Below the pieces are notes generated by a model. It saw nothing but the letters and a program-made list of their open reading frames with translations, ran no database searches and had not been told where the DNA came from. Of a stretch of DNA of 64,000 nt, positions 4,830 through 60,059 are shown in pieces. Positions within the stretch are counted from its first letter, which is position 1; the number at the start of each line of letters is the position of its first letter. This DNA comes from Parcubacteria group bacterium GW2011_GWC1_45_13 (lineage in GTDB: Bacteria; Patescibacteriota; Minisyncoccia; UBA11713; 2-01-FULL-45-33): assembly GCA_001001285.1 (NCBI GenBank), contig LCKG01000004.1:1957-65956 (forward strand). Reading direction: 5' to 3'. Position numbers and translations under genes: made by a program.

Positions 4830-5553
4830 AAAAATAATTTTCTTCGGCGGTTTTAAGGTGTTTTCTGAAATATATCTTAATGCTCTCAAAAGCGCCGGTT
4901 TTGAAATTGTCTTAGAAGCCAAAAACGCGGATCTGGGCATTATTGCTTACTACGGAAAAATTATACCGAAAGCTGTTTTGGAGCTACCTAAATATGGGTT
5001 TTTGAACGCCCACCCGTCGCTGCTCCCCCGCTGGCGGGGGCCGTCTCCAATCCAGGCGGCTATTTTGGCCGGAGACAAAACCACCGGTGTGACTATACAT
5101 ATGGCAACGGAGGAGCCTGACGCCGGGCCGATTTTAGCCCAGAAAGAAATTCCGATAGAGCCCGAGGATACCTGTTTTAGCTTAACCGGGAAGCTCGCTA
5201 ATGAAGGCGCGGCGCTTTTAATCCCGACTATTGAAAAATGGCTTTTGGGTAAAATTGCTCCAAAAGAGCAGGACCACTCCAAGGCCACTTTCACTAGATT
5301 GATTAAAAAAGAAGATGGGCTGATTGATTGGACCAAGGGCGCCGAATATATAGAAAGAATGGTGCGGGCGTATAACCAGTGGCCCGGGACATTCATAAAA
5401 ATGAAAAATGGGAAGATTTTAAAAATAAAAAAGGCAGCGGTAATAAATGGTGCTTTAAAACTTTTAATAGTCCAGCCGGAGGGGAAAAAAGAAATGGCGT
5501 ATGACGCTTTTGTGAGAGGACACAGGGAGATTATAGGAGAGCCGCTCCGATAG
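4822..5553 (+). CDS. fmt: methionyl-tRNA formyltransferase
   Basis: NAHPSLLPRWRGPSPIQAAILAGDKTTGVTIH formyltransferase core. Follows def as in the canonical def-fmt operon. Confidence 0.85.
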   Translation: MPKKIIFFGGFKVFSEIYLNALKSAGFEIVLEAKNADLGIIAYYGKIIPKAVLELPKYGFLNAHPSLLPRWRGPSPIQAAILAGDKTTGVTIHMATEEPDAGPILAQKEIPIEPEDTCFSLTGKLANEGAALLIPTIEKWLLGKIAPKEQDHSKATFTRLIKKEDGLIDWTKGAEYIERMVRAYNQWPGTFIKMKNGKILKIKKAAVINGALKLLIVQPEGKKEMAYDAFVRGHREIIGEPLR

Positions 5554-6226
5554 CAGCGGCGTTTTTGCCGAATTTCGATTTTCTTACAGGCAATTTTACC
5601 GCTTTTTGAAACTCAGCCACAAAATTTTGCCTTCCGGTTACTCCCCCGCCAACTATTATTAGTTTAGGGTTGTATTCTTTAAAGCGCCATTTCAAATGTT
5701 GGACTAAAAAAATGGCGAGGGCGTAGTTATTTTTTGAATCGCGTAATTTCTGATATTCTTTTTCCCAGCTCTCTGGGTACTCAAATTTTTTAATTTTTAA
5801 AATTTTGCCGGCTCTGCTGATCGCGCGCCCTATGCCCGTCCCCAGCGTAATAAATAAAACGGCCTGCCCGTCTAAATGCGTTAGCCCTGCCTTGCCAGTA
5901 GGCAGGTTTTGGTGGGCTCTCGCGAAACACCTAGCATCGTTATCAAGCCGCAACTTAGACGTCGGACGTCTAAGTTGCGAAATATCAAAATTTTTAAGAT
6001 ATTTAATGTTGGGGCAAAATAGAATTTTATTTCCTGAAACTGCGCCGGGCACTCCGATGCCGATTTTCTTTGCGCGGTAACTTTTTAAAATATTTTCCAA
6101 AAGCTTTTTAAAAGCGGCTAAATTTTTAGGCGTTTTAAACTCGCGAGCTTTTACGGCCCGCTTGCTGTCCCACAAAACCGCGCGTATTTTTGTGCCTCCA
6201 ATGTCTATACCTAACATAATATCCAT
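5531..6226 (-). CDS. ROK / BadF-type sugar kinase (putative glucokinase)
   Basis: N-terminal MLGIDIGGTKIR actin-fold ATPase phosphate-1 motif and GIGVPG. Carries in-frame palindromic insertions (see findings). Confidence 0.6.
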   Translation of the reverse strand: MDIMLGIDIGGTKIRAVLWDSKRAVKAREFKTPKNLAAFKKLLENILKSYRAKKIGIGVPGAVSGNKILFCPNIKYLKNFDISQLRRPTSKLRLDNDARCFARAHQNLPTGKAGLTHLDGQAVLFITLGTGIGRAISRAGKILKIKKFEYPESWEKEYQKLRDSKNNYALAIFLVQHLKWRFKEYNPKLIIVGGGVTGRQNFVAEFQKAVKLPVRKSKFGKNAAAIGAALL

Positions 6227-11374: not shown

Positions 11375-12910
11375 ATGAAAAATTCTGCTTACTGGCTGAT
11401 TGTAATTATTTTAATTGCCGTTTTTTTGAGATTTTGGGATTTAAAAAATACTCCGCCCGGGTTTTGGTTGGATGAGGCTATGAACGGAACCAATGCTATC
11501 CAGGCTATAGAGATTAGTGGCTGGAAGGTGTTTTACCAGGAAAATTTCGGGAGAGAGGGATTATTTATAAATATCCAAGCGTTATTTGTAAAAACTTTTG
11601 GCCACGAGCCATGGGTTTTGCGCTTGCCTTCGGTGATTTTCGGCTTATTAACGGTCTTGGGACTTTATTTTTTGACAAAAGAACTGTTTTCTGGGCGTGT
11701 TTCGCTTTTCGCGTCTTTTTTTCTGGCAACTTCGTTCTGGCACATTAATTTTTCACGAATCGGGTTCCGCGCGATAATGGCTCCGTTTTTTTTGGTTTGG
11801 GCGTTTTATTTTTTATTTTTAGGAATGCGGAAGCAAAAAGAATGGATTTTCACCTCAGCCGGATTTACTTTCGGCCTCGGCTTTCACACTTATATTGCCT
11901 ATCGCGCCGCGCCCATAATCGCGTTTTTGCCTTTTTGGAGTTTTTATAAATCATGGCGAGAGGACACCGGACGTCCACTTGGACGTCCGGTGTCCAAGCA
12001 CTGCGCTCCATGCTTAATTGGCCTTTTTATTTTCATGGCGTTTTTAGCGGCATTGCCATTGCTCTGGTATTACGCCCAAAACCCTGCTGATTTCCTAGGC
12101 AGGACCTCGGCAATATCAGTATTTAAATCTTCAAATCCGCTTGGCCAATTTTCAGAAAATTTGGTAAAAACTTTGGGAATGTTTAATTTCGCCGGAGATT
12201 TCAATTGGCGGCACAATTTAGCAGGTTCGCCCCAGCTTTGGTGGCCCGTGGGAATTTTATTTTTGATAGGGATTTTTGGAGCATTGCGCTCGAGTGTTTT
12301 CCCGCGCAATGCTTATAATTTTATTTTGCTGTGGTTCATTGTCATGATTCTTCCCGTCGCGTTTTCAAATGAATCTCTGCCTCACGCGCTTCGCGCCATT
12401 GTTTTAATACCGCCAGCTATGATTTTCGCCGCTTTGGGGCTGGACTGGCTTTGGAGAAATGTCAGGCCGCGGCTTAGGATTTTTATTTATATTTTTTTAG
12501 TCACCGCCGCGATTCAGGCATACAGCCAGTATTTTCTCCGCTGGGCGCCAAACTTTAATGTTTATCAAGCCTTCCATACTGACATTACGGAAAAGGCGCG
12601 TTGGCTCAACAAACAACCAAATGATATTAAAAAATACGTCATAACTGACGCGGTTGATCGGGTAGACACAACCGGAACGCCCATGTCATTTCAGCCAATA
12701 ATTTTTATTACTGATACTGCCACGCCGGCAAAACAGACAAGGAAAAACATCTATTATGCTTCTCTGCAAAATATTTCTTCAGCAAATTGTTCCCAAAAAT
12801 GCCTTTTCGTGCCCGTTGAATACCAACCTTCCATTTTTAAAATTATCAAACAAAAAATCCCGGGTTTGCGTCTAGACGCCTCTTCGGGATTTGTGGTTTT
12901 GAAAAAATGA
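11375..12910 (+). CDS. GT39-family (ArnT/PMT-like) membrane glycosyltransferase
   Basis: 511 aa with more than 10 TM helices and dolichyl-phosphate-mannose / ArnT-like N-terminal architecture. TATAAT at 11362 just upstream. Contains an in-frame palindromic element encoding EDTGRPLGRPVSK. Confidence 0.65.
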   Translation: MKNSAYWLIVIILIAVFLRFWDLKNTPPGFWLDEAMNGTNAIQAIEISGWKVFYQENFGREGLFINIQALFVKTFGHEPWVLRLPSVIFGLLTVLGLYFLTKELFSGRVSLFASFFLATSFWHINFSRIGFRAIMAPFFLVWAFYFLFLGMRKQKEWIFTSAGFTFGLGFHTYIAYRAAPIIAFLPFWSFYKSWREDTGRPLGRPVSKHCAPCLIGLFIFMAFLAALPLLWYYAQNPADFLGRTSAISVFKSSNPLGQFSENLVKTLGMFNFAGDFNWRHNLAGSPQLWWPVGILFLIGIFGALRSSVFPRNAYNFILLWFIVMILPVAFSNESLPHALRAIVLIPPAMIFAALGLDWLWRNVRPRLRIFIYIFLVTAAIQAYSQYFLRWAPNFNVYQAFHTDITEKARWLNKQPNDIKKYVITDAVDRVDTTGTPMSFQPIIFITDTATPAKQTRKNIYYASLQNISSANCSQKCLFVPVEYQPSIFKIIKQKIPGLRLDASSGFVVLKK

Positions 12911-20069: not shown

Positions 20070-20954
20070 TTAAATTTTTTCTAAAACTCTTAATTTGGCC
20101 GACCTGGAACTAGGATTTTTAATAATTTCTTCCTGGGATGCGGTTTTTGGTTTTTTAGTCAGAATGATTGCCTTTTTTCCGACAACGGCGGAAAAAAAGT
20201 TTTTTACGATTCTGTCTTCCAGAGAATGATAGGAAATAATCGCCAGCCTCCCGCCGGCATCCAACGCGTCAAACGATTTAGGCAGAGCTTCTGTTAAAGC
20301 TTCCAACTCGTTGTTTACCGCTATCCGCAAAGCTTGGAATATCCGCGCCAGTATCTTCTCTCGGCCATCCGGCTTTTGCGCGCCCAGAGCATTGAGCAAA
20401 TCTTTTACTGAAATGATGCGCCTGCCTTGCCGGTAGGCAGGCTGTTTTTTTCTGAACTCCATGATTTTTTTGGCAAACAGCCTTGCTTTTGGTTCTTGTC
20501 CGAAATTTTTAAATATTTCTGCGAGCCTGTCTTCGGGATATCCATTTAATATTTCGGCAGCCGTGTTCGCGGATTTTTTATTTAAATTCATAAATAACGC
20601 CTCCTCCGGCTTTTGAAAAGAAAATCCTCTTCCGCTTTGTTCAAGATGCCACCGCGACATGCCGAGATCGAATAATACGGCTTTTATTTTGTTAAACCCA
20701 AGTTTTTTGATAATTTCATCAATATCTTTGAAATTTCCCCAAATAGCTGTAATATTTTTGTCTCCCTCCATCCGTTCAATCATGCTTTTATCCTGGTCTA
20801 TCCCCAGCACTTTGCCGCCTGGTTTTATAAGCTCCAGCATCATTCGCGCGTGCCCGCCGCCGTTCAAGGTGGCGTCCACCGCGTTATCCCCCGGCTTAAG
20901 ATTTAAAAGTACTTTCAATTCTTCAGTTAAAACCGGCGTGTGGATCTCTTGCAT
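20070..20954 (-). CDS. rsmH: 16S rRNA (cytosine1402-N4)-methyltransferase
   Basis: N-terminal HTPVL...DATLGGGGH signature (here VDATLNGGGHA). Follows mraZ. Confidence 0.9.
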   Translation of the reverse strand: MQEIHTPVLTEELKVLLNLKPGDNAVDATLNGGGHARMMLELIKPGGKVLGIDQDKSMIERMEGDKNITAIWGNFKDIDEIIKKLGFNKIKAVLFDLGMSRWHLEQSGRGFSFQKPEEALFMNLNKKSANTAAEILNGYPEDRLAEIFKNFGQEPKARLFAKKIMEFRKKQPAYRQGRRIISVKDLLNALGAQKPDGREKILARIFQALRIAVNNELEALTEALPKSFDALDAGGRLAIISYHSLEDRIVKNFFSAVVGKKAIILTKKPKTASQEEIIKNPSSRSAKLRVLEKI

Positions 20955-28866: not shown

Positions 28867-29578
28867 CCACTTGGACGTCCGACGTCCAAGTGGCTATTAA
28901 TTTTCTAAAGATAACAGAACCTCTAGCTCTTTTAATAATTCTTTTCTTTGTAAAATATTTTTTAATGACTCTTCTCCAAATGTCTTATATTCTTTTTTGT
29001 TTTTAAATTGCTTAAGAATAATATTTTTATTACAAAGGTTTTCTTCACTTGAACTAATAAATTCTTCCCAACTAGAATAGGCGCCCCCCTCTTTTAATCT
29101 ATGTGCGCGGTTATTTAAATTTACATAAACGCTTGCATGCAATAAATATTCATTGGAATCAATATGACTAGATTTAAATTTGCCCTGAAAAAGTACGCCG
29201 CTCCTTTTATATTTATTATTAAAATACTTTGTATAGCCACCATTTAATCTTTTCATAAACTCGCTTAATCCACCGTCTGTTTTTGGCTCCAAAATCATAT
29301 GATAATGATTTGGATTAAGGCAATAGCAAATGATATTCACCAACTTGGACGTCTGACGTCCAAGTCGGGGTTTATCGAATGAATTTTCGTAAATACTGCC
29401 TATTGGTTCTAGAGAATTAAATTCCTTCATACTTTGAAGAAACCTCTTGAAATCATAATCGTTGTTAAATACAATACGCTTATCAGTGCCGCGGTTATAG
29501 ATATGATAAAATTCACCAATCATGAAAGCGGTTTTTCTCATGATACTATATTAGCACTTGGACGTCCGACGTCCAAGT
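28867..29578 (-). mobile_element. REP-RAYT unit: IS200-like HuH tyrosine transposase flanked by REP palindromes
   Basis: Palindromes ccacttggacgtccgacgtccaagtgg (28867-28893) and acttggacgtccgacgtccaagt (29556-29578) flank the transposase ORF. A third copy (29343-29365) lies inside it. Confidence 0.65.
28897..29541 (-). CDS. IS200/IS605-family Y1 HuH transposase (REP-associated tyrosine transposase-like)
   Basis: N-terminal YHIYNRG..R..IF strand, HuH motif NPNHYHMIL, downstream LFQGKF..SHID...EYLLHASVYVNLN resembling the RAYT WQ..F.DH signature. Confidence 0.7.
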   Translation of the reverse strand: MRKTAFMIGEFYHIYNRGTDKRIVFNNDYDFKRFLQSMKEFNSLEPIGSIYENSFDKPRLGRQTSKLVNIICYCLNPNHYHMILEPKTDGGLSEFMKRLNGGYTKYFNNKYKRSGVLFQGKFKSSHIDSNEYLLHASVYVNLNNRAHRLKEGGAYSSWEEFISSSEENLCNKNIILKQFKNKKEYKTFGEESLKNILQRKELLKELEVLLSLEN

Positions 29579-45403: not shown

Positions 45404-47308
45404 TTATTTCTTATCCTCTCCCTCTTCTTTAAAATCGGCGTCTTTGATGTCAGGGCCCGATTTATCTCCGCCACTGCCATCTTCCGGTTTTTTATACATC
45501 GCTTCGCCGATTTTGGAGAGAGATTGGGCGAGCTCCGTTTCAGCGGAGCGGATTCCAGCGACATCGTCTCCGTCTTTAACTTTTTTAAGTGCCTCTATTT
45601 TTTGGCTAACTTCGTCTTTTATCCCCTGTTCAATTTTGCCTGCCTTGCCGTCAGGCAGGTCACCCGCATCGCGCAACGACTTTTCTGCGGTGTAAACCAA
45701 AGCGTCCGCGCGGTTTTTGGCTTCAACCAATTCTTTTTTCTTTTTATCGTCTTCGGCGTGGAGTTCCGCGTCCTTTTTCATTTTTTCAATTTCATCTTTA
45801 GAAAGCCCCGTGGAAGCTTCAATCCTGATGGATTGCTCTTTATTCGTCGCCTTGTCCTTGGCTTTTACGGATAAAATTCCGTTTGCGTCAATATCAAAGC
45901 TGACTTCCACCTGCGGCATGCCGCGAGGCGATGGAGGAATCCCATCCAAAATAAATCTGCCGAGGGTTTTGTTATCTCCCGCCATCTCGCGCTCGCCCTG
46001 CAAAACGTGAATTTCCACGGAAGTTTGGTTGTCTGCGGCGGTCGAGAAAACCTGTGAACGCGCTACTGGCACCGTAGTATTTTTTTCAATAATTTTGGTC
46101 ATCACTCCCCCCAAGGTCTCAATACCCAAAGAAAGCGGGGTGACGTCCAAAAGCAAAACGTCCTTCACGTCGCCCTGCAAAATTCCGCCCTGCACCGCCG
46201 CGCCTACTGCCACAACTTCGTCCGGATTTATGGAAAGATTAGCTTCTTTCCCAAAAAGTTTTTTAATGCCCGCTTGAATCGCTGGCATTCTCGTTTGGCC
46301 CCCGACCAAAACTATTTCGTCAATTTCCTGCATTTTAAAACCCGATTCATCCACCACTTTCTTAGTAATCTCAAAAGACCTATTTAAATAATCTCCTACC
46401 AGCTCTTCCAGTTTGGCACGGGTGAATTTCATCAAAAGATGCCGCGGGCCGGAGGCGTCGGATGTGATGAAAGGAATATTTATTTCCGTCTCAACCGTGG
46501 TGGAAAGCTCGTGCTTGGCTTTCTCCGCAGCTTCTTTCAGGCGCTGAAGAGCCAAAACATCCTTGGTGACATCAATGCCCGATTCTTTTTTAAATTCCAC
46601 AGCGATATATTGGATAATTTTTTGATCAAAATCGTCCCCTCCCAAATGCGTGTCGCCTCCCGTGGCACGGACTTCAATGGTATCATCCCCAATTTCCAAA
46701 ACGGAAAGGTCGAATGTGCCTCCACCGTAATCGTAAACCACTATTTTTTCATTTTTCTTTTTATTTAATCCGTAGGCTAAAGCCGCGGCTGTGGGTTCGT
46801 TTAAAATCCGGCGAACTTGCAAACCAGCAATCTCGCCGGCCGCTTTGGTTGCTTGTCTTTGGGCATCGTCAAAATAAGCAGGCACGGTAATGATGGCTTC
46901 TTCAATTTTTTCTCCCAGCTTGGCTTCGGCGTCGGTTCTTAATTTCGCTAAAATCATCGCCGAAATTTCTTCCGGCCGGTACCATTTTTCATTTATTTTT
47001 ACGTCCACTCCGCCGTTGGCCGATTCTTTGATTTCATAAGGCAACAAGGTTTTATCGCGTTTAACTTCCGTATCGCCGAATTTCCTGCCAATCAATCGTT
47101 TTACCGAAAAAATGGTGTTTTTGGGGTTGGTCACTGCCTGTCTTTTTGCCAAAAGGCCGACCAGGCGCTCGCCTGTTTTTGAAAACGCGACCATTGAGGG
47201 CGTGGTGCGCGCGCCCTCCGCGTTTTCCAATATTTTCGGGACTCCCCCTTCCACGACCGCCATCGCGGAGTTGGTCGTTCCCAAGTCTATTCCTAAAATT
47301 TTTGCCAT
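45404..47308 (-). CDS. dnaK: chaperone DnaK (Hsp70)
   Basis: [19 protein letters not shown] and related Hsp70 motifs; 634 aa. Confidence 0.95.
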
Positions 47309-48644: not shown

Positions 48645-48760
48645 CGCAAAATCAGGCCGTTGGTTTCTCCGCCTGCCTGCCGGTAGGCAGGCTTGACTTT
48701 TTTAATTTTTCTGCATAAGCTGAAATCAGAGGAGCTTTAAGCTCCAAAAAGGAGGGCCAT

Positions 48761-57781: not shown

Positions 57782-59551
57782 TTATTCCACAGTTGCACGG
57801 ATGCGGCGAATGCCGGAGCCGACGGCTTCCTGCTTCAATATTTTAAACCGGCCGATTTCGGAAGTGTTTTTGACGTGCGGGCCACTGCAGAGCTCTCTTG
57901 AGAAAATTTCCGGCGGGTCGACCTTAAAATCCCCCACTAAATAAACTTTAACTCTTGCTGGATATTTTTCCTTAAAAAAATGCTGCGCGCCCAATTTTAA
58001 GGCGTCTTCATAAGCCATCTCTTTCATCTCAACATGATATTTTTTACCAACCGCAAAATTTACTAGATCTTCAACTTTTTTAACTTCTTCATCCGTAAGT
58101 TTTCTGTCAAACGAAAAATCAAATCTTGTCCGCTCGGCCGTGATGTCAGAACCGGCCTGTTTTACTCCTTCTCCCAAAACTTTTCTCAAAGCTGCCTGCA
58201 AAAGATGCGTCACCGTGTGCAATCTTGTTACTTTTTTCAACTCTGCTTCGTCCGCGGCTTTCAATTCTCCCGTATCCAGCAGCAACCCATGCCCTCCGAA
58301 TTTTTTCTCAATGCCAGCGCGGGATATTTCCTGATGTTTTTGAAATTCTTTATTAAAACTCTCCTCATCTACAGAATGCCCGCCTTGCCGAACTAAATCT
58401 TTTATAATATCAATTGTTAACCCGTAAGTTTGATGAAAATAAAAAGCATCTTTACCAGAAATAACTTTTAAGTCATGAGATTTGTAAGTCCCTCTTTCTT
58501 TCGGGGCATTAATTTGAGCTTCAATTTCCGGATATTTTTTTAAAAACTCATTCAGTCCATTTTCTAAAGTTTTATTAAATTTGTTAATTTCCGCATTGAT
58601 TTCTTTAATGATTTTTTCTTTGTTTATCATTAACTCTTTGTAGAAATCGTAATAATTTATTACTCCTTCAATTTCTGGAATAAACAACTCAAATGATTTA
58701 TGACCAATTGTCCTCCATCTTACCGCAATACGTCGAATCAATCTTCTTAAAATATAACCAGCCTCCTTATTGGATGGGCTGACTCCATCAGCTATTAAAA
58801 AGACACTACCTTTTAAATGGTCTGCGAGAACTCTGCCATCAATACCATAAGCAGGAAGGAGTTTAAATGGTTTTTGAAATAAATCAGTTTCAAAAATAGT
58901 TTTTTTGCCCTGCGAGACCATCGCGAGGCGCTCCAGCCCCATGCCGGTGTCCACGCCTAGCGTTTTCAGTTTTTCAAAAGTACTATCAGGTTTTTTGTAA
59001 TATTCATTAAAAACAATGTTCCACATCTCCACGCCGTTTATGTAAATTTCTGTCGTTGGACCGCAAGGCCCCTCCGTGCCGGTCGGCCCCCAAAAGTTAT
59101 CCTCGCGGCCGGCTTTTCGGATGTCTTTCACGCCGAGCGATTGCCAGATTTTATAAGATTCCTCGTCAAACGGCGTCTTTTCATCACCCGCGAAAACCGT
59201 GACGTATTCAATTTTAAGCCCGAGTGATTCCAAAAATTTTTTAGCGTACTTTATCGCCTCTTCCTTAAAATATCCTCCGAAACTGAAATTCCCCAACATC
59301 TCAAAAAAAGTAAGGTGCGATTCGTCCCCTACTTCATCAATGTCGGAAGTGCGGAAGCATTTTTGAATTGAAACAACATTAGGCGCGGGCGCAAGCGACG
59401 GCTCGGTATAATATTTCTTAAACTGCTGCATTCCTGCGGTGGTCAAAAGCACCGATAGGTCGTCTGGAATTAAAGAAGAAGATGGTACAATTTTGTGCCC
59501 GCGTTCTTTAAAAAATTCCAGAAACTTTTCTCGAAGCTCTGCGGAAGACAT
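57782..59551 (-). CDS. alaS: alanyl-tRNA synthetase, short form (catalytic + editing, no C-Ala domain)
   Basis: N-terminus MSSAELREKFLEFFKERGHKIVPSSSLIP; editing-domain HxxxH (HTVTHLL) and CSGPHV zinc motif; 589 aa. Confidence 0.85.
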   Translation of the reverse strand: MSSAELREKFLEFFKERGHKIVPSSSLIPDDLSVLLTTAGMQQFKKYYTEPSLAPAPNVVSIQKCFRTSDIDEVGDESHLTFFEMLGNFSFGGYFKEEAIKYAKKFLESLGLKIEYVTVFAGDEKTPFDEESYKIWQSLGVKDIRKAGREDNFWGPTGTEGPCGPTTEIYINGVEMWNIVFNEYYKKPDSTFEKLKTLGVDTGMGLERLAMVSQGKKTIFETDLFQKPFKLLPAYGIDGRVLADHLKGSVFLIADGVSPSNKEAGYILRRLIRRIAVRWRTIGHKSFELFIPEIEGVINYYDFYKELMINKEKIIKEINAEINKFNKTLENGLNEFLKKYPEIEAQINAPKERGTYKSHDLKVISGKDAFYFHQTYGLTIDIIKDLVRQGGHSVDEESFNKEFQKHQEISRAGIEKKFGGHGLLLDTGELKAADEAELKKVTRLHTVTHLLQAALRKVLGEGVKQAGSDITAERTRFDFSFDRKLTDEEVKKVEDLVNFAVGKKYHVEMKEMAYEDALKLGAQHFFKEKYPARVKVYLVGDFKVDPPEIFSRELCSGPHVKNTSEIGRFKILKQEAVGSGIRRIRATVE

Positions 59552-59626
59552 AGGGCTATTTTAGCATTAAAATCATTGCTTTAGCAATGATCCCGACGTA
59601 CGTCGGGATGAAAGCTAAAGCTTTCA

Positions 59627-59681: not shown

Positions 59682-60059
59682 TTACCTGCGCGAATGCTTC
59701 AATCTAGCGGTGTTTTTCCCCGCCAGCCGCTCCTCTTTCCAACGCACCAGCCCCTTGCGAATATATTGGGGGTCAAACCCCAAAGCACCGCAGATGTTAT
59801 TGAAGGAAAAAAGCCAATCCTTTTCCTCTTCCAAAACCCACTCCTCCGCGTCGCGAAACATCCTCTTTCTTTTGCCGATGCGGGCGGCGACATATTTCTG
59901 GAAGCAAGTCACCGCATCCTTCAGCACTGCCAGCATGAGGTCCTTTTCCGGCTCTAATTGGGCCTTACTGCGCAAGGTCTCAAAATATTGAGCCGGAATA
60001 AGGGTATCCGACTGAAATAAAGACCCTACTTTTTCATCTACCGAGAGACCATTTTCCAT
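59682..60059 (-). CDS. hypothetical protein
   Basis: 125-aa ORF with its own terminator. Confidence 0.4.
   Translation of the reverse strand: MENGLSVDEKVGSLFQSDTLIPAQYFETLRSKAQLEPEKDLMLAVLKDAVTCFQKYVAARIGKRKRMFRDAEEWVLEEEKDWLFSFNNICGALGFDPQYIRKGLVRWKEERLAGKNTARLKHSRR

Follow-up and report, generated by a model that had tools for sequence, protein, structure and literature searches.

We have analysed a 64,000-nt stretch of the genome of Parcubacteria group bacterium GW2011_GWC1_45_13 (contig LCKG01000004.1, positions 1,957 to 65,956; hereafter the window), in which a gene of the ROK sugar-kinase family carries, inside its coding sequence, a palindrome of the repetitive extragenic palindrome (REP) type. 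The host gene (5531..6226, minus strand, 231 residues) is intact according to Pfam, an ortholog alignment and an AlphaFold2 (AF2) model. Its product matches the Pfam ROK family (PF00480) with E = 3.8e-18 and 66.5 bits against a cut-off of 22.9, contains GIDIGGTK (the N-terminal DxGxT motif) and LDNDA, and is modelled with a mean pLDDT of 90.2; all NCBIfam ROK equivalogs stay below their cut-offs for it, and no substrate is assigned. In an alignment of 32 ortholog sequences, the family-invariant residues are all present on either side of the palindrome, which indicates that the gene is read through, as the first-pass annotation of this DNA had supposed.

That annotation had quoted a perfect 29-nt palindrome, and we do find gcaacttagacgtcggacgtctaagttgc at 5950-5978. 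The perfect palindrome exceeds this span by one base on each side, giving 31 nt at 5949..5979 (CGCAACTTAGACGTC G GACGTCTAAGTTGCG), with two arms of 15 nt (5949-5963 and 5965-5979) that are 100% complementary around a 1-nt centre. As single-stranded DNA it has a predicted folding energy of -16.2 kcal/mol (z = -8.4 vs shuffles). Read on the minus strand in frame with the ROK gene, it encodes (S83)Q84-L-R-R-P-T-S-K-L92(R93), where the 21-nt core (5954-5974) accounts for L85-K91. In the AF2 model, Q84-R93 takes in the end of helix 82-85, a 5-residue loop (86-90) and the first residues of strand 91-96, a strand that runs toward DNDA. The encoded segment is, as far as the model goes, more than a pure surface loop.

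The palindrome belongs to a family that is clearly over-represented in the window. Allowing no more than one mismatch, we have found GACGTCSGACGTC four times, while 0.01 occurrences are expected; with up to three mismatches, the 21-nt core CTTRGACGTCNGACGTCYAAG occurs five times (starting at 5954, 11978, 28870, 29344 and 29557) against an expectation of 0, which confirms the earlier assignment of the ROK palindrome to the family that flanks a transposase gene of this window (see below). The frame of the family, (C)ACTTGG...CCAAGT(G), is constant and the core varies between lineages. The ROK copy has the frame ACTTAG...CTAAGT and represents an A/T variant, CTTAGAC...GTCTAAG. The core spans 21 nt, i.e., 7 codons. 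Two of its frames, and in the G/C variant all three, are free of stops, and a palindromic core gives the same peptides in either orientation, so that a copy of the unit should keep a gene open wherever it lands. No target-site duplication flanks the element; its flanks are inverted complements instead. An Rfam scan of the window returned four tRNAs only and no match at the palindromes.

Three of the five copies are associated with a gene (28897..29541, minus strand, 214 residues) whose product resembles the REP-associated tyrosine transposases (RAYTs), a group of Y1 (HUH) enzymes. The assignment is based on Pfam Y1_Tnp (PF01797, 35.8 bits vs a cut-off of 23), on a 35-sequence alignment in which H79, H81 and Y139 are invariant in the RAYT family, and on a fold match of the IS200/IS605-RAYT type: for the AF2 model, the best match in the PDB is 4er8_A, the E. 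coli TnpA-REP bound to its REP hairpin (E = 9e-6, probability 1.00). A sequence search of the PDB with the RAYT profile gave no match. The protein is a distant relative of the classical proteobacterial RAYTs. A REP of the G/C variant (ACTTGGACGTC C GACGTCCAAGT, 29556..29578) lies upstream of the gene, starting 37 nt before the ATG, and another (CCACTTGGACGTC C GACGTCCAAGTGG, 28867..28893) starts 3 nt after the stop codon. The gene is bordered by Peptidase_M50 on one side and by an aminoacyl-tRNA synthetase and MreB on the other. Since the same neighbourhood is found at a locus of a related genome (L076; loci from other genomes are denoted here by L and a number), the gene appears to be chromosomal and vertically inherited.

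The third copy lies inside the transposase gene itself (29343..29365, ACTTGGACGTC T GACGTCCAAGT) and is read as RLGRQTSKLV, the core encoding L60-G-R-Q-T-S-K66. In the model this segment closes a long loop of low confidence that leads into strand 68-75, the strand ahead of the HUH strand. Among 35 homologs, QL(R/G)R(P/R)TSKLV ahead of the strand NIVCYCLNPNHYH is the RAYT family consensus. In the four loci first compared, the internal hairpin shares the unusual core of the gene's own flanking repeats; for example, L075 has ACCAACTTAGGT TCCCGAC ACCTAAGTTGGT inside the gene and ACTTAGGT TCCCGAC ACCTAAGT just past the stop codon. A metagenome scan added 80 RAYT loci, and 68 non-redundant RAYT genes of the candidate phyla radiation (CPR) were scored, an internal hairpin being counted if its arms reached at least 8 nt in the loop. 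Half of these genes (34/68) carry an in-frame internal hairpin. When each internal hairpin was compared with the flanking repeats of all 68 loci, those of its own gene ranked first without a tie in 23 of the 34 cases and within the top three in 31. The mean self score is 21.8 and the median non-self score is 8, the observed value was reached in 0 of 10,000 permutations, and the agreement extends over widely different cores. REPs on both sides of the transposase gene, with the same geometry as in the window, occur at dozens of loci. The loop itself shows no difference in length between genes that have the hairpin and those that lack it (median 33 vs 32 residues, p = 0.16). The internal copy is a family-wide feature which co-varies with the flanking REPs, and it can no longer be counted, as had been proposed, as one of three independent insertions in this window. 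A RAYT gene of Moraniibacteria (L039:369-1007) has an internal repeat at the usual loop that is read in frame 2, as VLDVGRLRKLV instead of QLRRPTSKLV, and looks like another compensated frame change.

We then turn to the history of the ROK copy. Between NFD(I) and LDNDA there are 11 residues in the window and 10–12 residues in palindrome-free orthologs (e.g., SKLFKNSKIK). Because the lengths with and without the palindrome are equal, there is no clean indel at this site and no residue has been added, so that the insertion boundary anticipated by the first-pass annotation is not seen. The closest orthologs (62–77% identity) conserve the ROK-fmt-def synteny and have related DNA at the same codons, which indicates that the element is inherited and not recent. 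In L001 (73% amino acid identity) the palindrome is intact (TTTCAACTTAGACGTC C AACGTCTAAGTTGAAA), and its outer stem differs from that of the window by a paired change, CGC/GCG to TTT/AAA, corresponding to S83F plus R93K. The left arm has decayed in L002, with 3 mismatches, and the element there reads QFRYRTSKL. L079 retains TTGGATGTTGGACGA, a decayed remnant read in frame 2 (LDVGR), and L004 has a GC-rich hairpin plus AACTTGGACGTCCAAGTT in place of the palindrome at the same site. L078 has no palindrome there. These comparisons show an element that is ancestral to a subclade of Giovannonibacteria and that was later kept, decayed or rearranged at the same codons; the site is a hotspot of palindrome turnover. 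In L004 (10001-10669), CCCCGCCGTCGGCGGGG adjoins AACTTGGACGTCCAAGTT, i.e., another palindrome family occupies the REP loop. We have also considered whether the palindrome-free orthologs carry a decayed REP and have found no support for this, as L078 agrees by eye at about 9 of 27 aligned bases, which is about random for AT-rich DNA.

A similar history is seen in a second host, a GT39/PMT_2 glycosyltransferase gene (11375..12910, plus strand, 511 residues). Its hypervariable loop holds a compound REP-derived palindrome (11962..11995, GGACACCGGACGTCCA CT TGGACGTCCGGTGTCC) with 16-nt arms, which is read as DTGRPLGRPVSK (the reading in the window is also given as EDTGRPLGRPVSK). The ortholog in L002 is 78% identical overall, while across the element it reads WTSDVHLDVRRPY where the window has WREDTGRPLGRPVSKH. 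Its own element, GGACGTCGGACGTCCA CT TGGACGTCCGACGTCC, likewise has perfect 16-nt arms. Between the two, GT in the left arm of one is matched by AC in the other, and AC in the right arm by GT. The shared core lies in different frames, with 7 nt more on the left and 2 nt more on the right in the window, 9 nt in sum. Such a compensated frameshift shows the region to be translated and open to any peptide, with its symmetry maintained and its frame under selection. It also contradicts the earlier statement that the palindrome is always read in the same frame. Among 58 homologs, the loop between FYKxW and CAPC has a baseline of 7–8 residues (KKGGVKNI; the DNA is palindrome-free in L080). It reaches 9 residues with a REP monomer (QLRRPTSKC; L081, CAACTTAGACGTCCGACGTCTAAGTG) and 12–22 residues with dimers or other palindrome families.

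To see how widely the family is distributed, we have scanned genomes for the exact pattern, taking one genome per species. It gave 76 exact cores, distributed over 68 stretches; with one exception, these come from metagenome-assembled genomes labelled as CPR lineages. Together with the 4 copies of the window, 44 of 80 exact cores lie in open reading frames (ORFs) of at least 140 residues, most of which are Pfam-supported genes. The suggestion that such palindromes are tolerated in coding sequence is thereby borne out on a broader basis. The hosts identified by Pfam include ArgRS, a GT4 glycosyltransferase, an AMP-binding enzyme, methylpurine glycosylase (MPG), UvrB and KsgA, and further TsaD (two sites), TrmD, SpoU, Dus, RluA-type synthases, HolB, a MurD-like ligase, TsaE and C39-like peptidases. 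At the Pfam-supported sites all three reading frames are used, about 17 times frame 1, 7 times frame 2 and 2 times frame 3. The commonest peptide is L(R/G)R(P/R)TSK, followed by LDV(G/R)R(L/P)S; the frame that gives TWTSDVQ is interrupted by stops in the A/T variant, which limits this peptide to the G/C variant. For TsaD, the comparison of L032 with L046 reveals a clean insertion of 21 nt, or 7 codons (WL(LRRPTSK)SVK vs WLRRI). Compared with homologs in the PDB, TrmD is longer by 8 residues and TsaD by 4.

Several further observations were made on these loci. The TsaD ortholog L032:1643-2707 has CCCCTCCCCTT ACG AAGGGGAGGGG where L046 has the REP. In the MPG orthologs L013, L016, L033, L061 and L074, the REP is found just ahead of the conserved ITE(T/V)EAY motif and is itself followed by an in-frame Met (...TSKC(Y/F)MI...). 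Depending on the true start codon, it is either coding or part of the 5' untranslated region. In L016 the Pfam match covers the REP in the extended ORF (residues 11-221). The assembly GCA_964362705.1 (CAYIFM01...; L014, L032, L038, L054, L080) is titled 'uncultured Candidatus Saccharibacteria' and has the same REP family; its GT39 protein is 76% identical to that of the window, and the Saccharibacteria label looks doubtful.

In addition, the copies are extended beyond the 21-nt core in a locus-specific manner. In 79 copies (L007-L074 plus the window; e.g., L042:4756, L010:3161, L073:1225), the flanks lengthen the palindrome by a sequence that differs from locus to locus. The first two flanking positions are paired in 46 copies, and 17 of these have at least 3 extra pairs, while 0.7 are expected. 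TrmD orthologs differ from one another by a flip of the centre base (C or G), and so do MPG orthologs. Taken together, the flank extension and the flips of the centre base suggest a symmetrising or inverting process. Among mismatches, G.T and A.C types were counted 5 and 2 times, respectively, too few to favour either selection or a mutational symmetrising process as the cause of the symmetry. Quasi-palindrome template-switch mutagenesis (the Ripley model) would produce simultaneous complementary changes in both arms, palindromes that stay perfect in spite of divergence, and outward extension with no change of length, and this expected pattern matches the ROK copy, the GT39 copy and the 79 copies. 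On the other hand, the Ripley model describes a mutational mechanism and not an element family, and cannot alone create a specific core at a new site.

The window also contains a second hairpin family, which is unrelated to the REP. It has the form CCTGCCT-TGCCNGTN-AGGCAGG (21 nt) and occurs at 5886-5906, 20421-20441 and 45639-45659, with a shorter variant at 48673; the three copies lie in coding sequences, with 0.09 chance matches expected. The first (5886..5906, centre TGCCAGT) is again in the ROK gene, where it is read LPTGKAG and abuts the sole low-confidence stretch of the ROK model (residues 111-116); the hairpin lies in an indel-rich loop. The second is read PAYRQGR in the ORF 20070..20954 (minus strand). 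The third, in DnaK (45404..47308, minus strand), is read LPDGKAG and corresponds exactly to a 7-residue gap relative to E. coli DnaK. Two other repeats were seen in the window. An inverted repeat with 22-nt arms at 59578-59621 (GCTTTAGCAATGATCCCGACGT / ACGTCGGGATGAAAGCTAAAGC, 86% complementary) lies between the minus-strand ORFs 57782..59551 and 59682..60059 and may be a terminator or another repeat family. An imperfect 30-nt palindrome (12848-12899, 77% complementary) is found where the two tandem GT39/PMT_2 genes meet, close to the stop at 12910.

Based on the above analyses, we consider it probable that the ROK palindrome represents a copy, intragenic and translated, of the REP-type hairpin that belongs to the RAYT-like HUH/Y1 transposase of a Giovannonibacteria-type Parcubacterium. 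New copies might arise either through the putative activity of the RAYT on single-stranded hairpins or through short-patch copying from other REPs. In such gene-dense genomes, the copies that survive would be those in permissive coding loops, and survival would hinge on a stop-free, hydrophilic and loop-compatible coding in either orientation. The symmetry would later be kept by selection, by template switching or conversion within the hairpin acting as a symmetrising process, or by both, which would explain the paired changes of the arms and the overwriting of loops without change of length. The same process may retain the in-frame cognate REP in many RAYT genes. A fuller proposal can be offered only tentatively, as one that we judge somewhat more apt to be wrong than right in its entirety. 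In this proposal, CPR bacteria possess a REP/RAYT system of their own, made of 21-nt coding-compatible hairpin modules that are stop-free in both orientations and lie mostly in essential genes; the RAYT carries an in-frame cognate REP that would be kept identical to the flanks by RAYT-mediated replacement or conversion, perhaps for autoregulation or as a protected master copy; and a symmetrising process overwrites codons without change of length. On this proposal, the hairpins would be a lasting supply of variation in the protein loops of reduced genomes.

Several observations count against the reading of the ROK palindrome as a copy of a RAYT-mobilised hairpin. The ROK copy is an A/T variant while the copies associated with the RAYT, i.e., the resident transposase–repeat unit (REPtron), are of the G/C variant. 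This mismatch means that the ROK copy is not homogenised with the resident flanking copies, and it looks like an inherited copy whose homogenisation with the resident REPtron has ended. The RAYT-like protein scores 29.2 bits against the cut-off of 80 for the NCBIfam equivalog of REP-associated tyrosine transposases (NF047646). The copy number is low, with 3–10 exact cores per genome, and no transposition event has been directly observed. Identical codons inside the REP between orthologs amount to 168/180 vs 58%, a contrast that is inflated because most loci were retrieved by the exact pattern match; the unbiased ROK pairs (8/9 and 6/6) are merely suggestive. Finally, the plain insertion of 21 nt fails for loops of the same length (ROK and the GT39 monomer of L081, +1 residue each; RAYT, 33 vs 32), and the locus-specific extension of the palindrome likewise falls outside a simple insertion. 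Unchanged lengths and flank extension would both be accounted for by a process that restores symmetry, for example template switching within the hairpin.

Of the other explanations, the one that survives best, though we regard it as unlikely, is that the hairpin is kept for a function in cis, either as an mRNA stem that slows ribosomes or sets the half-life, or as a DNA structure in replication or repair, with the resemblance to RAYT repeats being secondary. The stem-preserving paired changes in ROK and GT39 orthologs, the high codon identity inside the element and the strong predicted stability of the hairpin would all be expected in that case. However, the host genes are functionally unrelated, the positions are arbitrary and all three frames occur, the element decays freely in L002 and L079, and no Rfam family matches it. 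In addition, the core tracks the RAYT-flanking repeat of each lineage, which points to a cause at the level of the element and not of the gene.

That a mobile palindrome was recently and independently inserted in frame into a surface loop of ROK, adding about 10 residues in the manner of the Rickettsia palindromic elements (RPEs), is slightly less likely still. This was the explanation originally put forward, and its description of an in-frame palindrome in an intact gene stands, while the addition of residues and the recent date do not. Insertion as such does happen, as seen from the clean 21 nt in TsaD (L032 vs L046) and, for the second hairpin family, from the 7-residue gap in DnaK, and distant ROK orthologs lack the palindrome. 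In ROK, however, the ortholog alignment already contradicts it: the segment has 11 residues against 10–12 without the element, the identical codons are occupied in syntenic orthologs of 62–77% identity, and the encoded stretch takes in the start of strand 91-96.

It is very unlikely that the palindrome is a recognition sequence of another system, for example a DNA-uptake sequence of a naturally competent CPR cell or the target of a restriction-modification system (it contains two AatII-type GACGTC sites). Uptake sequences do sit in coding DNA in tolerated frames in Pasteurellaceae and Neisseria, and GACGTC is enriched in the window (14 vs 5.5 expected). This enrichment is solely due to the palindromes, since 10 of the 14 sites fall within the five copies and those outside stay at background (4 vs 5.5 expected); the idea of an AatII restriction site was dropped, as GACGTC is neither depleted nor enriched without the palindromes. 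Moreover, the core differs widely between related lineages and always matches the local RAYT flanks, and there are just 3–10 exact cores per genome. That QLRRPTSKL is simply a native ROK loop with accidentally palindromic codons can practically be dismissed in spite of the loop length, which equals that of palindrome-free orthologs, because about 0 matches are expected, the shuffling controls and the cross-genome scan have already refuted chance, the identical 21-nt core recurs in unrelated genes of many genomes, and distant ROK orthologs such as L078 have unrelated sequence.

Small and gene-dense CPR genomes were hitherto not known as hosts of REPs and RAYTs. The hairpin family in them is translated and resides largely in essential genes, including those of an aminoacyl-tRNA synthetase and of tRNA-modification, repair and cell-wall enzymes, so that CPR bacteria join Rickettsia as a second and independent example of reduced genomes with palindromes that code for protein. 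The elements also matter for annotation, since they make loops hypervariable, shift frames in a compensated way and lead to spurious N-terminal extensions in the gene calls of CPR genomes. The in-frame cognate hairpin of the transposase gene, which co-varies with the flanking copies over many core variants, provides a tractable handle on the recognition between RAYT and REP and on their co-evolution.

Finally, we compare the family with known systems. Literature searches returned no description of RAYT or REP elements in CPR, and neither the family in these bacteria nor the presence of a cognate REP inside a RAYT gene seems to have been described before. In-frame intragenic REP or RPE behaviour itself is already known. 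RPEs are about 150 bp long, each encode a conserved peptide, and lie in frame in functional genes of Rickettsia (PMC10969869, PMC3733652). The CPR copies are likewise in-frame palindromes in functional genes of a reduced genome where an extra peptide is tolerated, but the RPE measures ~100–150 bp and gives tens of residues while the CPR unit has 21–31 nt and 7–10 residues. An RPE adds a segment, whereas the ROK copy adds none (the TsaD copy, L032 vs L046, does, with +21 nt), and unlike the RPEs the CPR family has a RAYT-like gene with matching flanking repeats. The elements are also different from miniature inverted-repeat transposable elements, which are 70–300 bp long with terminal inverted repeats and a target-site duplication, the unit here being 21–31 nt.

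Closer in kind are the intragenic REPs of the GTAG- and CGTC-tagged superfamilies, which have already been described outside Rickettsia (Di Nocera et al. 2013, PMC3733652). They occur in uvrB and in tRNA-modification and repair genes, as single, dimeric or clustered copies, and the GTAG type is associated with RAYTs; most REPs are nevertheless intergenic, and where flanking repeats were noted to overlap the transposase gene, they did so just at its 5' or 3' end (PMC3733652). Both groups share short palindromes in ORFs for known proteins, some of them at the N- or C-termini. In CPR, by contrast, a constant tag ACTTGG...CCAAGT surrounds a lineage-variable core, with no terminal GTAG or CGTC; CGTC is confined to the core of the variant in the lineage of the window and is absent in others (e.g., CTTGGCAACCGGGTTGCCAAG). 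While the GTAG and CGTC REPs are mostly intergenic, more than half of the exact CPR copies lie in ORFs of at least 140 residues, and instead of terminal overlaps only, the CPR transposase gene has an internal in-frame copy, in CPR hosts.

The REPIN-RAYT system, or REPtron, consists of a Y1/HUH transposase flanked by repeats that it presumably mobilises (Bertels and Rainey 2011, PMC3116915, PMC3337134). Here too, a Y1/HUH gene has flanking repeats, the repeats are dispersed (five copies in the 64-kb window), the nearest fold is TnpA-REP, and the transposase gene occupies a syntenic chromosomal position in a related genome (L076). Unlike the REPtron, the CPR system has a low copy number and largely intragenic, translated copies, and half of its RAYT genes contain an internal cognate copy; REPtron repeats are extragenic while CPR copies are often in ORFs, and single hairpins, not REP doublets, were scored here. 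Overall, the features that set the CPR family apart are the ACTTGG...CCAAGT frame, the small unit with a length divisible by three, the predominance of intragenic copies, the occurrence in CPR bacteria and the cognate copy embedded in the RAYT gene, and its interest comes mainly from this embedded REP together with the breadth of residence in coding sequences.

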